Notes: generated by a model not told the origin, from the sequence alone. A stretch of 24,914 nt of DNA from a virus (IMGVR_UViG_3300038427_000102:1-24914); one strand, 5' to 3'; positions 5,037 through 22,763 are shown, numbered from the stretch's first letter. Made by a program: numbers and translations.

Positions 5037-5612
5037 ATGATAGTTTATTTGATTACCAATAAAGTGAATGGAAAGCAGTATGTAGGTCAAACTACAAAAA
5101 CTGTAGAAAAGAGATGGGAAAAGCATCTAGAAAATGCAGATTTAGGTATTAAGTTTCTAATCTACAAATCCATAAGAAAGTATGGTGCAGAAAACTTTTC
5201 TCGTGTCATACTTCACGAATGTGAAACCAAAGAAGAGATGGATTTCGTGGAGATGTTCTACATTGCACTACTGAGTACCAAAGCACCAAATGGGCACAAC
5301 TTAACAGACGGTGGAGAAGGCCAATTTGGACGTAGACTTTCAGAAAAAGCTATACAAAAAATGAGAGATGCGTTTACGGGGAAACCAAACCCTAAGAATT
5401 CCGAGCATCTTAAGAAGAACCCAAGACCAAGAAACCCTGTAAATGGCAGATTGTTAAGCGACAACGAAATAGCCACAGGAAATTGGGACACTACACCGGC
5501 AAAAGCCTCTGAAGAGACTCGTCTAAAGATGAGTAAAGCACATGAGGGTTTTAGACATACAGAGGAATCAAAAGCCAAGATGAGAGGAAAACGTGGCCCA
5601 AGAAAAAGGTAA
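5037..5612 (+). CDS. GIY-YIG homing endonuclease with NUMOD3-like C-terminal repeats
   Basis: IVYLITNKVNGKQYVGQT...RWEKH...E..YI...NLTDGGEG; repeats SEETRLKMSKAHEG and HTEESKAKMRG. Confidence 0.9.
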   Translation: MIVYLITNKVNGKQYVGQTTKTVEKRWEKHLENADLGIKFLIYKSIRKYGAENFSRVILHECETKEEMDFVEMFYIALLSTKAPNGHNLTDGGEGQFGRRLSEKAIQKMRDAFTGKPNPKNSEHLKKNPRPRNPVNGRLLSDNEIATGNWDTTPAKASEETRLKMSKAHEGFRHTEESKAKMRGKRGPRKR

Positions 5613-7912: not shown

Positions 7913-7985
7913 TACAGGACTTATAACCCTGTACTAGAGTTGGGAGGTGCACGAACACCTCCCTGCTCAACCTTTTCGTGGAGGA
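7913..7985 (+). promoter_or_regulatory. hairpin + pseudoknot leader motif, copy C (upstream of GIY-YIG gene)
   Basis: TACAGG-acttataac-CCTGTA; GGGAGGTG-cacgaa-CACCTCCC; loop CACGAA (7950-7955) is complementary to TTCGTG (7975-7980), which abuts SD GGAGGA. Confidence 0.75.
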
Positions 7986-7989
7986 ATCA

Positions 7990-8580
7990 ATGTTTGGAAT
8001 AATTTACAGAATTACCAATGCCGAAACAGGTATGGAATACGTAGGACAAACCGTGCAATCCCTTAGAGAACGCTGGGTAGAGCACATGTCTCATGCTCGG
8101 CAAGTAAAAAGCCAATCCTATATGTCTCGGGCTCTTAGGAAGTACCCGATTGAAGCATTCGTTGTAGAGTCGATTCACGAGTGTGAATCCCAAGAAGAAC
8201 TGGATTTTGTAGAAACCTTCTACATTTCCCTACTCAACACTAAGGCTCCCAATGGGTACAATTTAGCAGACGGCGGTGGAGGAGTTTCTGGGTGGCAGAA
8301 TGGCAAAGGAAATGTGCCCACCGAAGAGACGAGAAAAAGACTCAGTGAGGCTGGAAAAGGCAACACAAATGCCTTGGGTAAAAAGTATTCAAAAGAGTTT
8401 TGTGAAAAGATTAGCGTAGCCTTGAGTAAACGGGTGCGCAAGGAAGAATCGTATAACACTCCGAAATGTCTAGAGAAAAGAAAGAACTATAGACATGGGA
8501 AGGAAGCAAGGGCCGCTATTAGCGCAGGGCTTAAGGGAAAACCTTGGTCTGAAACAAGGCGCGCGGCACAAAGAGTTTAG
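7990..8580 (+). CDS. GIY-YIG homing endonuclease (paralogue of 5037..5612)
   Basis: GIIYRITNAETGMEYVGQT...RWVEH; HECESQEELDFVETFYISLLNTKAPNGYNLADGG is close to the 5037 gene. ATG 7990 follows SD GGAGGA. Confidence 0.9.
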   Translation: MFGIIYRITNAETGMEYVGQTVQSLRERWVEHMSHARQVKSQSYMSRALRKYPIEAFVVESIHECESQEELDFVETFYISLLNTKAPNGYNLADGGGGVSGWQNGKGNVPTEETRKRLSEAGKGNTNALGKKYSKEFCEKISVALSKRVRKEESYNTPKCLEKRKNYRHGKEARAAISAGLKGKPWSETRRAAQRV

Positions 8581-8735: not shown

Positions 8736-11700
8736 ATGGCACTATTAGAGGCTTAACAACAGTGGGCCTCATTAAATTCAACCTGATTGACTCGAACGCT
8801 GAAATGCCAACGAGGGCGAACCTGCAAAGGACGCTGAGAGACTAAGCGGTTGAACTCCTACGGGAAGATGCAATAGTCCGAACTCACAGGAACACAACTG
8901 TGAGAGGTTAGCAGAAATGACTAACCCGTACGTAATACGTAACAACATGGCTGTTGAAGCAGTCGAACTAGACGCTACCCAATAGCAAAGGCGTCTACAA
9001 TTCCTTATTGAAAAAAGTTTGCTAAGGAAATCCCTAAACAAAATTGGGGATTAAAAACCCACTCTGATTGACTTGAAACCTGAAACGGCAACAAGGGGCA
9101 AGCGAAAGCAGCCTGAGAGACTAAGCGAGAGGGGCGTCCACAAGACGCATGCGATAGTCCGTTCTCATGGGAACAACAACCATGAGAGGTTGACGGAAAC
9201 GATCAACCCAGAACACAGTAACAAGTAAGGATTTGGTTTTCCATGGCACAACCGCCTATAGCCTTTTCAAGGCAGAAGCAACATCTATCCCCGTGTCCAA
9301 CCAGTCAAACGCTGGTGGCACCGTCCGTGCATCATTCCGTGTGCCTTTCCGTGTGCAGTCCGGCGCGGCAATCTCACAAGGAACTGGTAACGCTGACGCT
9401 ATGGGCCGTGGCACTGGCTCGCAGTGGGCATCGTTCGCGCTGGCACCCGTTTATCTGTTCAACGTGTAAATTTCATGCGCGTTTAAAAGTTGTCCGTATC
9501 GGTGAAACCCTAGCATTTCATGAGGTAAATATGAGTGTAGAAAATACCGAGGTAAGAAGTCAGAGTTTATCAGAGTTGCAAATTGGATACCTCGCAGGAA
9601 TCATGGACGGAGAGGGATCAATCACTTTCGTGTACCATAAGTGCAAGACGAATGTGAATGTTCTGTATTCTCCTGTCGTGTATATATGCGCGGTGGCAAA
9701 CTCCAATCCACTGATAATCCAAGCTGTCGAATCTCTTTTGAAGAACCTTCCTATTAGGTACAAAGTGTACTCACCTAAGCAGGAATGGAACAAGAAAGCA
9801 AAGAAGAAACCGTACGCCATTCATTTGATGGGTATGAATTCTGCTAAGCATTTCTTAAACGTCATCTGTAAGCACCTCAATGGCAAGAGGCAGCAAGCGG
9901 AGTTGGTACTTGAGTATCTGGAACGCAGAGAAGAAGGTCAACGAGTAAAATTCATGACGGAGAGAGATTGGCAAATCATCCACACTGTTCGAAATATGAA
10001 CAGGAATTATGGTGCTGACTTTACCGTAGAGACTAAACGACAACCTTCGCTAACGGGCGAAGAAGTTATAGTCCGAACTGTATAGTGATGTACAGAGGGA
10101 GCAGAAATGCACTCCCCGAATGTCATTACTTATTTTTAAGTGATTACATTTAGTAACAATTTGGTGAAATCTCGTGGTTAGCTCAGGCTTCCACGGATAG
10201 CAAGCAGAAGGGTCTTTTTGCCGTTAAGTCCAAAGCTTTGGCGGCTGTTGCAGGCAAATAAAAGCAACAAAAATTCGCTATATCGGGGAACCTCTGGTAT
10301 ACTATGATTAGTAAATCAGACAATCCCGAGGGAAGATAGTAATGACAAAACAGTCGAAGTTTTCGTACCTAGCAGGTTTCATGGATGGGGAAGGTTCCTT
10401 CTCTATCGTCAAAACCTTCTCTGTTCAAAGAAAACGGGACGGAAGTAAGCAGAAATACGTAACCTACAAATGTATGGTTTCAGTCACCAACACACACAAA
10501 GGTGTTATGGACTGGATCGCCAAGACTTTTGGTGGAAAAGTTCTCACGGGCAACAATGAGAACAGAAACCCCAAGTACAAGACTAGGTATTCGTGGTTCA
10601 GAACGAGCCACGAGGACATTGAAAAATTTACGTTAGGAATTCTGCCTTACCTCATTGTTAAAAAGGAACAGGCACTAGTGACTTTAGAGTTCTGCAAAAC
10701 GTATCAAGCAGAGCGTATAGGCACAGCCCTGAACCCAGAAGTGCAAGTTAAGAGAGATGAATTGAGGAAGAAAATGATGTCCCTTAATGGAGTTTACTCT
10801 GGCGCTTCTACTAGACCCGTAGAGACTACACGCGAGACCCCTCAAATAGAGGGTGATGATATAGTCCGAACTGCATAGTGATATGCAGAGGGTTGGCAGA
10901 AATGCCCAACTTTTGTCAGAAGAATGTACACAAACTTCTTTCAAATAACAAATTGTAAAGCACAGGAAATGAAGAACTCTCTCGACGCCGCAATGCAGGG
11001 CATAGAAGGGCTCATCAACTCAGACGGGTCTGGTAAACAAACAATCTGCCTGACCTTATAAACATGTAGAGAATTCGGTGAAAACCCTTAGGGGCAATAC
11101 CGAGCCGCTCCTCGTATCTGGGGAAGGTGTAACGACTATCCCGAAAGGGAGTAGGGAACAGTGTTCCCGAAGCACTACAACCTTTATGAAAAACTCAAAT
11201 GAAATACTCTGGTCGTATCTGGCTGGGCTGTTCGATGGTGAAGGCACCGTCTGCATAAGCACCAGTCACAACCGAAACAATACAGCTATTTTCCAGATGA
11301 ATGTGAAAGTGGCTAACACTAAGTTGGAACTGATGCAGTGGCTGATTAAAAACTTCGGCGGGTTTTACTCGGTGAGTCAAGCTAAATGCGAAGGAAATAA
11401 TAGAGCTACTCAATATGCGTGGATGCCTAAAGGCAAGAACAATCGAATAGAGGTTCTAGAAAAAATGCTGCCATACTTGGTTATAAAAAAGCAGCAGGCT
11501 CTTATTGGTTTGGACTTTGAAAGAGTGTATGAAGGACGAAACGGATGTCAGCCGGGACTAAAACTGACAACCGACAGTCCTATCTACGTTGAAGCCCACG
11601 CAAAGAGGCTAGAATTAAGAGATCAGCTCGTAAAGCTGAATCGTAAAGGTAAGATATAGTCTGAACTCATAGGCAACTATGAGAGTGTGCGCGGAAACGG

Positions 11701-12811
11701 CGCATGCGTAACAGTATTGATGATTGACCAGATCCCCGCCACAGCAACCTTCGGTACAGGTACTGGTGCACAGACGGCCAGCATTGTTGGCATGAACGTC
11801 GCAGTGGCGTTCAGCGATCAGCAAGTGGTTTCGTTCTACACCGTTGGTGGCGTGAAGCGTGTCGGTGGTGGATACACATCGGCAACGATCTCGTACGTTG
11901 ACGGCCCTTCGAACACCCTGTGGTTCAGCACCCCGCTCCCGACCGATCTCGCAGTCACCGACTACGTGGTTGTGAACGGTGCAACATACGGAACTGGCGC
12001 GTCCGTCCTCGGCATCAAAGCTTGGGATGTGAACTCCAACTCCGGTACCATCGCGGGCTTGAACCGCGCGTCTTACCCCGGGCGTCTGAGCACACCGACG
12101 ATTAACCTCAACGGCGCTGCGATTACACCGGGCATCGCACAGCGTGCAGAAGTCTTGTTGGGACGCGCACTCGGACCCGATGCAGACTCTATCAAGAGCG
12201 GCATCTGGTACGGCCCGCCTGAGCAAGCTTTCGCACAAAGCAACTTGATGTACAACGTTCAGATCGTGAACGCACAGGAAGTCAAGGGCGACAAGACGAT
12301 GGACATGGCCCGCAAGTATTTCAGTGATACTTTCGGCGGCAGGAAATATCACAAGTCTTGGACGGCGATCAACAACCGTATGGACTTGCTTGTACTAGAC
12401 AACTGGTACATTGGGGAATTGTCTCCCCTTGAGCTGTATGATTTCGGTGGTGGCAACGTCGTTGCTCCCGTGCCGGACATCAGTTCAACCACTGGTACCG
12501 CGAGTTACTTGACCTCGCACATGTTCGCATATAACACCTGCTTTTCCACAAAGGTTGGAGCAGTATAAACCCCATCTGATTGACTCGAACGCTGAAATGC
12601 CAACGAGGGCGAACCCGAAAGGGACGCTGAGAGACTAAGCGATAGGGCACCGAAAGGTGATGCAATAGTCCGAACTATACGGGAACAATAACCGTATGAG
12701 TGCAACAGAAATGATTGCACCACGCATAGCGTGTAACAAATATGTAACCTTGCGAACGCGGCTCCGCGCGCCGGTCTATACATCCAAAACGCGGCAGTTC
12801 CCACTATCTGA
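8736..12811 (+). CDS. major capsid protein, split into 8 exons: 8736-8753, 8950-8976, 9018-9035, 9230-9467, 10164-10224, 10956-11034, 11720-12543, 12745-12811 (443 aa spliced)
   Basis: AAGGA RBS then ATG 8736. Joining at U/G boundaries predicted independently by P1 and P10 pairings gives 1332 nt with no internal stop: MALLEA|AVEAVELDA|FAKEIP|DLVFHGTTAYSLFK...YLFNVC(split)EISWLAQASTDSKQKGLFAV(split)KAQEMKNSLDAAMQGIEGLINSDGSG|MIDQIP...AYNTCF(split)NLANAAPRAGLYIQNAAVPTI*. Position after the scaffold-like gene, size, the DGSG motif and the NL...P..G..I.N C-terminus fit an HK97-fold coat protein. Confidence 0.85.
8754..8949 (+). ncRNA. group I intron 1 (196 nt, ORF-less)
   Basis: P1 GAGGCU/GGCCUC with U.G; P10 CAACAGU/GCUGUUG; P3 UUCAACC/GGUUGAA; P7 elements GAGACUA (8838-8844) and AUAGUCC (8873-8879); P9 hairpins; terminal G8949. 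Confidence 0.92.
8977..9017 (+). ncRNA. 41-nt core-less group-I-like mini-intron (intron 2)
   Basis: P1 UAGACGCU (8969-8976)/GGCGUCUA (8990-8997) ending in U.G; P10 UAGCAAA (8983-8989)/UUUGCUA (9018-9024); terminal G9017. Contains an in-frame TAG and shifts frame; no P3-P8. Confidence 0.8.
9036..9229 (+). ncRNA. group I intron 3 (194 nt, ORF-less)
   Basis: P1 AAUCCCU/GGGGAUU with U.G; P10 AAACAAAAUU/GAUUUGGUUU (1 mismatch); GAGACUA (9117-9123), AUAGUCC (9154-9160); terminal G9229. Confidence 0.92.
9468..10163 (+). mobile_element. group I intron 4 (696 nt) carrying a LAGLIDADG endonuclease
   Basis: P1 AACGUGU/GCGCGUU; P10 AUUUCAU/GUGAAAU; P3 GUUGUC (9489-9494)/GACAAC (10039-10044); GAGACUA (10029-10035), AUAGUCC (10068-10074); terminal G10163. 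Confidence 0.9.
9531..10085 (+). CDS. intron-encoded single-motif LAGLIDADG homing endonuclease
   Basis: GYLAGIMDGEGSI motif and HLNGKRQQAELV; GAGGT RBS before ATG 9531. Confidence 0.9.
   Translation: MSVENTEVRSQSLSELQIGYLAGIMDGEGSITFVYHKCKTNVNVLYSPVVYICAVANSNPLIIQAVESLLKNLPIRYKVYSPKQEWNKKAKKKPYAIHLMGMNSAKHFLNVICKHLNGKRQQAELVLEYLERREEGQRVKFMTERDWQIIHTVRNMNRNYGADFTVETKRQPSLTGEEVIVRTV
10225..10955 (+). mobile_element. group I intron 5 (731 nt) carrying a LAGLIDADG endonuclease
   Basis: P1 GCCGU/GCGGC; P10 GCUUUG/UAAAGC; P2 UGUUGC/GCAACA; GAGACUA (10822-10828), AUAGUCC (10861-10867); terminal G10955. Confidence 0.9.
10342..10878 (+). CDS. intron-encoded single-motif LAGLIDADG homing endonuclease
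   Basis: SYLAGFMDGEGSF motif; FGG; ILPYLIVKKEQA (I-CreI-like). Confidence 0.92.
   Translation: MTKQSKFSYLAGFMDGEGSFSIVKTFSVQRKRDGSKQKYVTYKCMVSVTNTHKGVMDWIAKTFGGKVLTGNNENRNPKYKTRYSWFRTSHEDIEKFTLGILPYLIVKKEQALVTLEFCKTYQAERIGTALNPEVQVKRDELRKKMMSLNGVYSGASTRPVETTRETPQIEGDDIVRTA
11035..11719 (+). mobile_element. group I intron 6 (685 nt, IA-like with P7.1/P7.2) carrying a LAGLIDADG endonuclease
   Basis: P1 GGGUCUGGU/GCCUGACCU; AACGACUA (11131-11138) followed by hairpins UCCC-gaaa-GGGA and GGGAAC/GUUCCC; AAGAUAUAGUCU (11651-11662); terminal G11719 (G11722 is a one-codon alternative). Confidence 0.88.
11186..11659 (+). CDS. intron-encoded single-motif LAGLIDADG homing endonuclease
   Basis: SYLAGLFDGEGTV motif; NFGG; MLPYLVIKKQQA. 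ATG 11186 is preferred over the track start 11078, which lies in the ribozyme core. Confidence 0.9.
   Translation: MKNSNEILWSYLAGLFDGEGTVCISTSHNRNNTAIFQMNVKVANTKLELMQWLIKNFGGFYSVSQAKCEGNNRATQYAWMPKGKNNRIEVLEKMLPYLVIKKQQALIGLDFERVYEGRNGCQPGLKLTTDSPIYVEAHAKRLELRDQLVKLNRKGKI
12544..12744 (+). ncRNA. group I intron 7 (201 nt, ORF-less, core nearly identical to intron 1)
   Basis: P1 CUGCUU/GAGCAG with U.G; P10 AAGGUUG/UAACCUU; GAGACUA (12631-12637), AUAGUCC (12665-12671); terminal G12744. Confidence 0.92.
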
Positions 12812-12985: not shown

Positions 12986-13540
12986 ATGCCATACAAAAAC
13001 AAAGCAGATGCCAACGCTGCAGCACGTAGACGTTGGAAAGAAAACCCAGAAGCACGAAGGAAGCAAAAATCTGCTACACAAAAGTGGCAGGATGATAACA
13101 AAGAGCGCTGGAATGATTACAGAAACAAATGGATGAAGACTGACAGGGACGAAAACATAGAAGTTCGTAGAGCTTATGAATTCGCCCGAGAGATGAAGAA
13201 GTACGGAAAATCTATAGAGTGGTACAGGGACAAGCTCGTTGAGCAGCTTGGAGTCTGCGCAATGTGCGGGCATTTCAATCACTCTCAGCGTGGAGAACTG
13301 CATAGATTGCAGGTTGACCACGATCACGGATGTTGCGACAAAAGAACCCATAGTTGTGGTGAGTGTGTCAGGGGGCTTATTTGTGAGAAGTGTAACCTGA
13401 GGCTTGCCCCAATTGAACTTCTGCTTTCCGAGTTCCCCTTCGAGAGACAGGATCAAGCGGAGATTTACCTAAGAAATTCAGTGCGTCAAGACTCATGGAC
13501 GTACCGAGCACTAAAATACCTCAAGCAGTACACCGCCTAA
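12986..13540 (+). CDS. endonuclease VII-like (His-Me) homing endonuclease
   Basis: QLGVCAMCG...LQVDHDH...VRGLICEKCN signature; basic helical N-terminus. Confidence 0.88.
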   Translation: MPYKNKADANAAARRRWKENPEARRKQKSATQKWQDDNKERWNDYRNKWMKTDRDENIEVRRAYEFAREMKKYGKSIEWYRDKLVEQLGVCAMCGHFNHSQRGELHRLQVDHDHGCCDKRTHSCGECVRGLICEKCNLRLAPIELLLSEFPFERQDQAEIYLRNSVRQDSWTYRALKYLKQYTA

Positions 13541-16364: not shown

Positions 16365-16973
16365 TTGCCGTATAAAGACCCAGCGAAACAGGCAGAAAGC
16401 CAAAGACGCAGATATTGGGCTAACCCAGAACAGAGCAGAGAACGCGGTAGAAAGTATACAAAACTCTACGGAGAAAGACATCCAGAAAAGTTGAAAGAAG
16501 CAGCATTAAAGCGCTCACCTATAGAAATAAAAGAGACTCAGGCAAGGTGGCGTGAAAGAAACAAAGAAAGAAAGAGTGCACAAGTTGCAAAGTGGAAGAT
16601 AGACAATCCTGACAAAGTTAGGGCACTTTACCATAAGCGTAGAGCACAGAAGACTCAGGCTGGTGGCTTTTTCACCTCTGAAGAATGGTTCCTTTTGTGT
16701 TTTGCTGTGGGATTCAGGTGCTTGTGCTGCGGTTTGAAAAAGCCTTTAGAAGCAGACCATGTGGTCCCAATTTCTAAAGGTGGAACAAGTTGGCTGTGGA
16801 ACATTCAGCCGCTGTGCGAATCCTGTAACACTAAAAAGCACTGCCAGATCATAGATTACAGAGACTCAGAGCAGAACTCAGTTGGCGCTAATGCGCCGGA
16901 AAAGGAAATAAAAAATCTATGGAGCCTACCCTTACCTCGCCAGTACATCGCTCAGACCTTAGCGAAAGCATGA
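16365..16973 (+). CDS. HNH homing endonuclease (paralogue of 1796..2284)
   Basis: EEWFLLCFAVGFRCLCCG...LEADHVVPISKGGTSWLWNIQPLCESCN; AGGAGG RBS, TTG start. Confidence 0.9.
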   Translation: MPYKDPAKQAESQRRRYWANPEQSRERGRKYTKLYGERHPEKLKEAALKRSPIEIKETQARWRERNKERKSAQVAKWKIDNPDKVRALYHKRRAQKTQAGGFFTSEEWFLLCFAVGFRCLCCGLKKPLEADHVVPISKGGTSWLWNIQPLCESCNTKKHCQIIDYRDSEQNSVGANAPEKEIKNLWSLPLPRQYIAQTLAKA

Positions 16974-22208: not shown

Positions 22209-22763
22209 ATGTCGGAATCGTCACGTAGGTGGAGAGAAAAATATCCAGAGAGAGCAAGAGAATCGGCGTGTAAGAGCAGACTTAAACGAAGACAAAAAGA
22301 CCCAGAAGGGGTACGTGAATACAGCAACAATTGGAATGCTTCCCATCCAGAAAAAGCACGTGAGAGAGCTAGAGTATGGAATAAAGAGAATCCAGAAAAA
22401 GTACGTGAAAAGACTAGAAAATGGCGTAAGGAAAACCCGGAAAAGGTAAAGGCCCAAAAGAATAAACGTCGCTCATTCGAATTGGGAGGTGAAGGAGCTT
22501 TCACTGCACAAGAGTGGACAGCTCTTAAAATCTCCACGGGAAATATGTGCCTTTGTTGTAAGCGTACAGAGCAGGTGCTAGTCTCTTTGGGATTAAAATT
22601 GGTACCAGACCATGTTGTTGCGTTGATACACGGAGGTTCTGGCGGCATCACAAACATTCAGCCACTGTGCCACGGTGTAGGTGGATGCAACAATAAAAAG
22701 TACACTAAGAACACAGACTACCGTGTTAATAAGGCTCAGGATAATCATGGAGACGAATCCTAA
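22209..22763 (+). CDS. HNH homing endonuclease
   Basis: W.KENPEKV repeats; FTAQEW...CLCC...PDHVVAL..GG...NIQPLC....GCNNKK. Confidence 0.88.
   Translation: MSESSRRWREKYPERARESACKSRLKRRQKDPEGVREYSNNWNASHPEKARERARVWNKENPEKVREKTRKWRKENPEKVKAQKNKRRSFELGGEGAFTAQEWTALKISTGNMCLCCKRTEQVLVSLGLKLVPDHVVALIHGGSGGITNIQPLCHGVGGCNNKKYTKNTDYRVNKAQDNHGDES

Follow-up and report, generated by a model that had tools for sequence, protein, structure and literature searches.

A core-less 41-nt insert in a phage capsid gene is probably excised by the group I intron located downstream

In the viral DNA stretch IMGVR_UViG_3300038427_000102:1-24914 (24,914 nucleotides (nt), hereafter the window), the major capsid protein gene (8736..12811, plus strand) is interrupted by seven inserts. 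The second of them (8977..9017) is a mini-intron (mini) of only 41 nt, which carries the substrate-recognition parts of a group I intron and has no catalytic core. From the comparison of sequences, it is quite probable that this mini is excised in cis by the core of the full intron located 18 nt downstream (9036..9229, the putative helper), by means of a predicted hinge helix between the tail of the mini and the exon. More generally, phages probably carry natural non-autonomous, guide-only group I introns that are hinged beside the P1 helix of a neighbour, one core performing two ordered excisions, and that arose repeatedly at several sites of capsid and portal genes. The mini is real, recurrent and under structural selection, and the dependence is one-way, of the mini on its helper.

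Anatomy of the insert and its flanking exons

The borders of the inserts were set by spliced alignment to intron-free alleles, the junctions being slid by at most 3 nt towards the form U|...G wherever the alignment permitted. The first-pass annotation had described a 41-nt insert that bears an in-frame TAG and shifts the frame, and this description holds: the insert extends from 8977 to 9017, the TAG lies at 8983-8985 and retention of the insert halts translation at codon 18. It falls exactly between the residues ELDA and FAKEIP, both conserved in the intron-free homologues, where the N-terminus reads MALLEAAVEAVELDAFAKEIPDLVFHG. The alignment of homologues that had been proposed as a check recovers the motif of exon 2 in 70 and that of exon 3 in 71 of the 72 full-length homologues. 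Among 73 mini-bearing and 96 intron-free loci (redundant), no intron-free locus has exons identical to a mini allele over the first 150 nt, the best agreement being 134/150; no contig resembling a spliced product was thus found.

The last 8 nt of exon 2 (AVEAVELDA, 27 nt, 8950..8976) pair with the internal guide of the mini (8990..8997 with 8969-8976) in the 8-base-pair (bp) P1 helix that had been proposed; it closes in the wobble U8976·G8990 at the 5' junction, and its pair probabilities are 0.87-1.0. The proposed 7-bp P10 was also found: it joins the strand 8983..8989 to the beginning of exon 3 (9018-9024), two of its pairs being changed on both sides, and the insert finishes with an A run (9011-9016) and the terminal G9017. 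P1 and P10 helices of this length were obtained in none of 2000 base shuffles of the insert (tested on locus L006, which has the identical insert). Folded plainly, 8960-9035 shows only a modest stability, with a z of -2.2 and 8 of 200 shuffles equally good. One element of the first-pass annotation did not survive, namely a small CAAU/AUUG hairpin that can be drawn, yet has a pairing probability of 0.0 in the fold of 8965-9062. In the same fold the bases of its loop pair instead with exon 3 (9002..9007 with 9023-9028, probabilities 0.93-1.0), forming next to the P1 of the helper what we call the docking helix.

Exon 3 (FAKEIP, 9018..9035) has the 18 nt previously given for the distance to the next intron, just as the 27 nt of exon 2 separate the mini from intron 1. 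It is wholly occupied by the partners of P10 (9018-9024) and of the docking helix (9023-9028) and by one strand of the helper P1 (9029-9035). P10 and the docking helix share the two bases 9023-9024, and this overlap suggests a switch between steps.

The absence of a core, also proposed from the start, agrees with the lack of a P7 motif and of any Rfam match over the insert. In its 41 nt there is no P3-P8 core with a G site in P7, and a P7 motif is present in none of the 20 minis described below; because it has no catalytic core, the mini is not an autonomous group I intron. The features that a group I core reads in its substrate are conserved. The U·G pair at the 5' site is found in 11/11 sequences aligned at the site of the window and in 20/20 minis, the terminal G in 20/20, and a P10 of 5-8 bp in 19/20 under strict rules, the remaining one (L078) showing it by eye with a 1-nt offset. 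The mini likely works as a group I substrate. The geometry of P1 and P10 was said to be common to the six full introns of the gene; a strict scan bears this out for five of them. For the intron 11035-11719 it gives a P1 of 3 bp and a P10 of 1 bp, and helices with a mismatch and a bulge can be seen by eye.

Recurrence and covariation

Capsid loci were collected by protein and by patterns blind to the insert length and to the downstream introns. The search for related inserts composed of P1 and P10 only, suggested by the first-pass annotation, revealed 20 distinct minis of 34-49 nt at four sites of the capsid family. By position in the coding sequence, 13 are at site 45 (the site of the window), three at site 46, three at site 63 and one at site 18. 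All have the form U|...G, with median lengths of 8 bp for P1 and 7 bp for P10, and every one contains an in-frame stop within 8 codons. The identical 41-mer was recovered from 6 separate IMG/VR contigs; the other 12 variants at site 45 depart from it, with compensatory changes. Once 22 of the 41 metagenome pattern matches were dropped as unrelated genes, the loci recovered with the site-45 pattern (18/18 viral and 19/19 metagenome capsid loci) all had inserts of 38-44 nt. Because 20 distinct minis occur at four sites with compensatory changes in P1 and P10, the mini is not an assembly error.

In the alignment of 11 site-45 sequences, 95.2% of the cells pair against 90.2% in shuffles (0/500), and 10 cells are changed on both sides against 3.2 in shuffles (0/500), values that are inflated by kinship among the sequences. 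The guide of these sequences tracks synonymous changes of the exon.

Full-length introns also occur at the mini sites 18, 45 and 63, and a distant relative (L147) has a full intron of 196 nt at site 45, which suggests that minis may derive from full introns through loss of the core. The 34-nt mini of L225 ends in the motif GCAGAAAUG, which is present in the loop of the P9 region of most full introns. This end is possibly a trace of an origin by deletion; the same bases serve the docking helix.

Dependence on a downstream group I intron

The association with full introns was counted over 69 distinct exon-plus-architecture types covering the region. In all 25 mini-bearing types, the next insert is a full intron at site 63, 101 or 114, located 18-83 nt downstream, against 1 of the 44 mini-free types (L224) with a full intron at one of these sites (Fisher p 6e-18, overstated because the types are related, the six mini/helper site combinations being a more independent count). 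Four truncated loci outside this count also show the start of the helper. Since 15 of the 20 minis lie in genes whose start codon is intact and in which no intron precedes them, the helper is likely to be the downstream one; in L025/L098 and in L271/L350, this is the sole full intron found in the gene. The first-pass proposal of a core borrowed from a neighbour fits all the comparative data, those of a covarying and recurrent insert followed by a full intron in 25 of 25 types. The part that it left to intron 1 (8754..8949) did not stand, this intron not being needed.

The helper of the window is a complete compact intron of group I type, 194 nt long. It has its own P1 with a guide at 9046-9052, a P10, the core motifs, a P7 (9117-9123 and 9155-9160) with a bulged base beside a G-C pair, and a terminal G. 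Core motifs and P7 are intact in 14/14 compact helpers, as in 44 other compact introns, and the strands of P7 covary among the 58 compact introns. The Rfam model RF00028 did not score the compact introns, the helper included; only three nuclease-bearing introns were scored, below the gathering score.

The three compact introns of the window (8754-8949, 9036-9229 and 12544-12744) measure 194-201 nt, are without P2 and are undetected by RF00028 even at E<1. One core motif of such introns has about 150 matches among viral contigs, spread over genes of several kinds.

A two-way dependence, in which the helper would also need the mini, was considered and rejected: in L224 an intron is located at a helper site without any mini, and the helpers display no motif difference from the 44 other compact introns. 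The site-63 intron of L224, of 300 nt and with an apparent decayed nuclease remnant, is the sole helper-site intron found alone.

A helix between the mini tail and the exon

The tail of the minis, 3' of the guide, pairs with exon bases that immediately precede the helper P1. This docking helix usually starts 1-3 nt after the guide and ends 7-9 nt before the 5' site of the helper. At a shuffle threshold of p<0.05, the pairing was detected in 21 of 24 minis (the 20 of the capsid family and 4 from other genes) versus 4 of 54 control pairs made up of ordinary introns that follow one another. When the whole exon was searched in the 11 cases where it measures 24-107 nt, the strongest pairing had its end at -7 to -11 in 8, 2.8 being expected (P=1.4e-4). 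L076 (10 bp) and L080 (8 bp), whose sequences differ here, keep the helix at a distance of about 50 nt from their minis. An earlier reading, according to which the tail pairs near the 3' splice site (17/20), was replaced by this one, which also covers L076, L080 and L225; in L075, L078 and L143 the best pairing of the tail is still near the 3' site. The paired codons of the exon are AAG in 19/19 and GAA in 18/19 of the site-45 types, against 26/47 and 24/47 of the other types, a bias that fits either selection or co-conversion.

Occurrence outside the capsid family

A scan for P1, P10 and terminal G was realized upstream of 96 distinct compact viral cores, drawn from 122 of the about 150 compact-core matches in viral contigs, and gave 7 matches where 1.6 were expected. 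Two of the 7 are the capsid family of the window, and the match in L330 was treated as chance, its removal adding stops. A 38-nt mini (L296:605-642) interrupts an HK97-type portal gene, with a helper 24 nt downstream and a long docking helix, and in 60 of 120 homologues one strict motif runs through both junctions without interruption; the class is therefore not confined to capsid genes. In a distant capsid family, L230 and L271 carry unlike minis, of 47 and 35 nt, at the same near-C-terminal site, about 30 nt upstream of an intron near position 700. The site is uninterrupted in 61 of 102 homologues, and the gene of L271 has no core other than that of the helper. A truncated protein among the homologues implies a third variant at this site. 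In another probable capsid gene, a candidate mini of 46 nt (L246, ~518-563), with a helper 107 nt downstream, restores the frame.

Spread of the alleles

On the downstream capsid sequence, in a tree from which ten distant loci were left out, the site-45 alleles with mini and helper do not form one clade (approximately unbiased test, p-AU 6.5e-5; 16 versus 47 rows). Among the long site-63 helpers, a GIY-YIG-type open reading frame (ORF) is present in 6 of the 7 examined (motif by eye). From these scattered alleles and these ORFs, the mini and the helper are likely to move as a cassette and to have spread together by homing. In the window, a free-standing GIY-YIG endonuclease gene (7978..8580, plus strand) is located upstream of the capsid gene. 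By motif scan, such a gene accompanies 6 of 21 mini alleles and none of 41 mini-free alleles, and collaborative homing is a possible explanation.

Excision model and alternatives

In the model that we favour, the P1 of the mini would form and its tail would pair with the exon bases that directly precede the helper P1. The two P1 helices would then share a junction beside the linker that leads into the helper core, so that either may swing into the single active site. The P1 of the mini would dock first, and free guanosine would cut after U8976; P10 would align exon 3, G9017 would enter the G site of the helper, and exon 2 would be joined to exon 3. The helper would splice itself last, the mini having to leave before it. 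The chemistry of such an excision is plausible, because engineered cores remove internal segments.

Several observations weigh against this model. The P values of the docking helix are optimistic, its window having been fixed after several examples were viewed, and 13 of the 24 minis of that test form one related family. The docking helix is missing from L078 (p 0.57) and weak in L075 (0.07) and L246 (0.2). In the site-45 alignment, the counts of pairs changed on both sides (69/500) and of further pair types (444/500) are not above shuffles. As Rfam gave no score, the assignment of the compact introns to group I rests on motifs and on P7 pairing. The 3' motif YAACA is present in none of the 20 minis versus 105 of 115 full introns, and without it the route of the terminal G into the G site is unexplained. 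At site 18, L053:3945-3954 (same contig as L105) shows an insert of 10 nt with an in-frame stop and no downstream helper; it repeats exactly the 10 nt with which the L078 mini begins and may be an assembly collapse, a remnant or a mis-spliced product. Finally, the co-occurrence of mini and helper could come partly from co-conversion during homing and not from catalysis.

This last point leads to an alternative that we regard as unlikely, in which any core, of an upstream or of an excised intron, would act in trans and the downstream intron would be linked to the mini through homing only. Engineered cores do act on substrates in trans in the accessible text of PMC4094466 and PMC6155759, the scattered site-45 alleles and the GIY-YIG-type ORFs of the site-63 helpers make a co-transfer probably real, and L078 lacks the docking helix. 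Yet among the 25 mini types none has its full introns solely far off or upstream, whereas mini-free genes often have introns at sites 301-1307, and the tail pairs at the helper P1 across unrelated genes. Homing alone also agrees poorly with the six helpers at sites 101 and 114, whose 210-235 nt leave no room for a nuclease gene. The place where the tail pairs, next to the P1 of the helper itself, speaks for a downstream helper in cis more than for an excised intron in trans.

Removal of the insert by a protein of the host or of the phage, an endonuclease plus a ligase reading the helices, might be considered since an RNA of 41 nt is too small for a group I core. It is nevertheless very unlikely: the invariant U·G, the P10 and the terminal G are signatures of group I introns, and the link with a ribozyme in 25 of 25 types would be unexplained.

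For the inserts called PaSSU, a P1, a P10 and a pairing of the middle part with the 3' exon are described, one of these inserts being reported to splice in vitro (PMC3160393, as far as accessible), and a mini might likewise splice alone, aided by the structure of its exons. We find this hardly credible, because PaSSU is depicted with a P7 and a G site of its own and has a terminal U; the minis, of 34-49 nt, have no P7 motif, end in G and are always accompanied by a helper.

We give as little credit to the view that the insert is never spliced alone and that the neighbouring introns skip exon 2 or exon 3 together with it. Both skips keep the frame, and exon skipping is reported for the phage group I introns of SIOphi and Twort in the accessible part of PMC11878797. 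The conservation of exons 2 and 3 in 70-71 of 72 homologues argues against it, as do the compensatory changes by which the P10 of the mini tracks exon 3. Moreover, exon 2 is unskippable where there is no upstream intron, and skipping the exons of 38-83 nt would cost 13-28 conserved residues.

Two further explanations are almost certainly wrong. Ribosomes that bypass or frameshift over the insert, as suggested by the stop near a stem and by the A6G run, and for which T4 gene 60 with its matched take-off and landing codons is the precedent, would leave the U·G, the P10 and the terminal G without explanation; the site-45 lengths (38-44 nt) represent all three frames, and the triplet that precedes the insert agrees with its final triplet in 0/20 minis (junction register only). 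A full intron collapsed in assembly, or a dead gene, could be imagined since all the records are metagenomic assemblies and L147 has its full 196-nt intron at site 45, but the same 41 nt recur in 6 contigs, the 12 variants show compensatory changes, the inserts of the loci collected blind to length all measure 38-44 nt and the joined capsid gene is intact.

The capsid gene and the other features of the window

The eight exons, once joined, encode 443 amino acids without a stop, of which 413/443 are identical to the homologue P0001 (intron 5 being placed 5 nt off in this comparison). The major head protein family phrog_14242 of PHROG is matched by 59 of the 112 members of the capsid family. The structure model of P0001 (predicted local distance difference test, pLDDT, 86; predicted template modelling score, pTM, 0.82) matches solved phage capsids including HK97, with a best E of 2e-10. 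The interrupted gene is a major capsid protein gene, predicted to be of HK97 type from this model match. Searches of Pfam, PHROG and PDB sequences with P0001, its alignment or the window exons, and of GenBank phages, gave nothing useful.

Exon 1 (MALLEA) covers 8736..8753 and is followed by intron 1, a compact full intron of group I type of 196 nt (8754-8949). Beyond the mini (8977-9017) and the helper (9036-9229), the spliced alignment places intron 4 (9468-10163), with a LAGLIDADG-like ORF, introns 5 (10225-10955) and 6 (11035-11719), each with a LAGLIDADG ORF, and intron 7 (12544-12744), compact and ORF-less, all on the plus strand. In the capsid gene family, full introns occupy 24 different sites, many of them grouped in the final 90 coding bases. 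Further free-standing nuclease-like ORFs are located between structural genes at 1796-2284, 5037-5612, 12986-13540, 16365-16973 and 22209-22763 (GIY-YIG and EndoVII by PHROG, HNH-like by eye). A weak hint of a possible host is given by a 52% capsid relative on a 4-kb contig of a Pseudacidobacterium metagenome-assembled genome.

Relation to known splicing systems

If splicing is confirmed, the mini would be the parasite of a parasite, a natural intron of which only the guides are left and which uses the core of another. A split between substrate and catalyst is often invoked for the origin of spliceosomal introns, and the mini would be a living case of it. The mini would also lock its helper into an essential gene; the proposal that it makes the neighbouring introns undeletable would apply to the downstream intron and not to the others. 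Excision would also account for brief gaps with stops that are missed both by gene callers and by Rfam. The portable design (P1, P10, terminal G and a docking strand of 6-10 bp) suggests a way of aiming ribozymes with their guide unchanged.

In the open literature, subscription papers being mostly outside the search, no natural core-less intron served by a neighbouring intron was found. Within the literature searched the arrangement is reported only for engineered RNAs, and the closest systems are the engineered spliceozymes and the fungal PaSSU inserts. The accessible text of PMC6155759 describes group I introns as naturally cis-acting, self-removing ribozymes. Like the phage introns of this group (RF00028; PMC11878797, PMC7886860, in their accessible parts; Twort orf142), the mini has a P1 with U·G, a P10 and a terminal G, several introns are located in one structural gene and its neighbours carry homing endonuclease cargo. 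Unlike them, the minis have no P3-P9 core or G site, have an obligate downstream full intron and form an extra helix between tail and exon; their 34-49 nt compare with 173-3279 nt given for the introns of Bastillevirinae and relatives in the accessible part of PMC11878797.

PaSSU and its relatives, as presented in the accessible text of PMC3160393, are found in fungal small-subunit ribosomal DNA, thus in eukaryotic rRNA and not in phage mRNA, and measure 63-78 nt. They have a modelled P7 with a G site and a terminal U where the minis have no P7 motif and a terminal G, and PaSSU is reported there to splice alone with long flanks, no helper intron being described.

The spliceozymes and trans-excision-splicing ribozymes (PMC4094466, PMC2532722, PMC6155759, in their accessible parts) resemble the proposed system in that a core removes a foreign internal segment and joins its flanks. 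Engineered group I ribozymes are reported to excise 100-nt inserts from mRNA in vitro and in E. coli (PMC4094466, accessible text), and three-piece systems to accept terminal-G substrates in trans (PMC2588497, likewise). These ribozymes, as there described, are built in the laboratory, act in trans and supply the guide themselves, whereas the mini carries its own guide, which covaries with its own exons, and its core would be tethered downstream in the same mRNA and would also have to splice itself.
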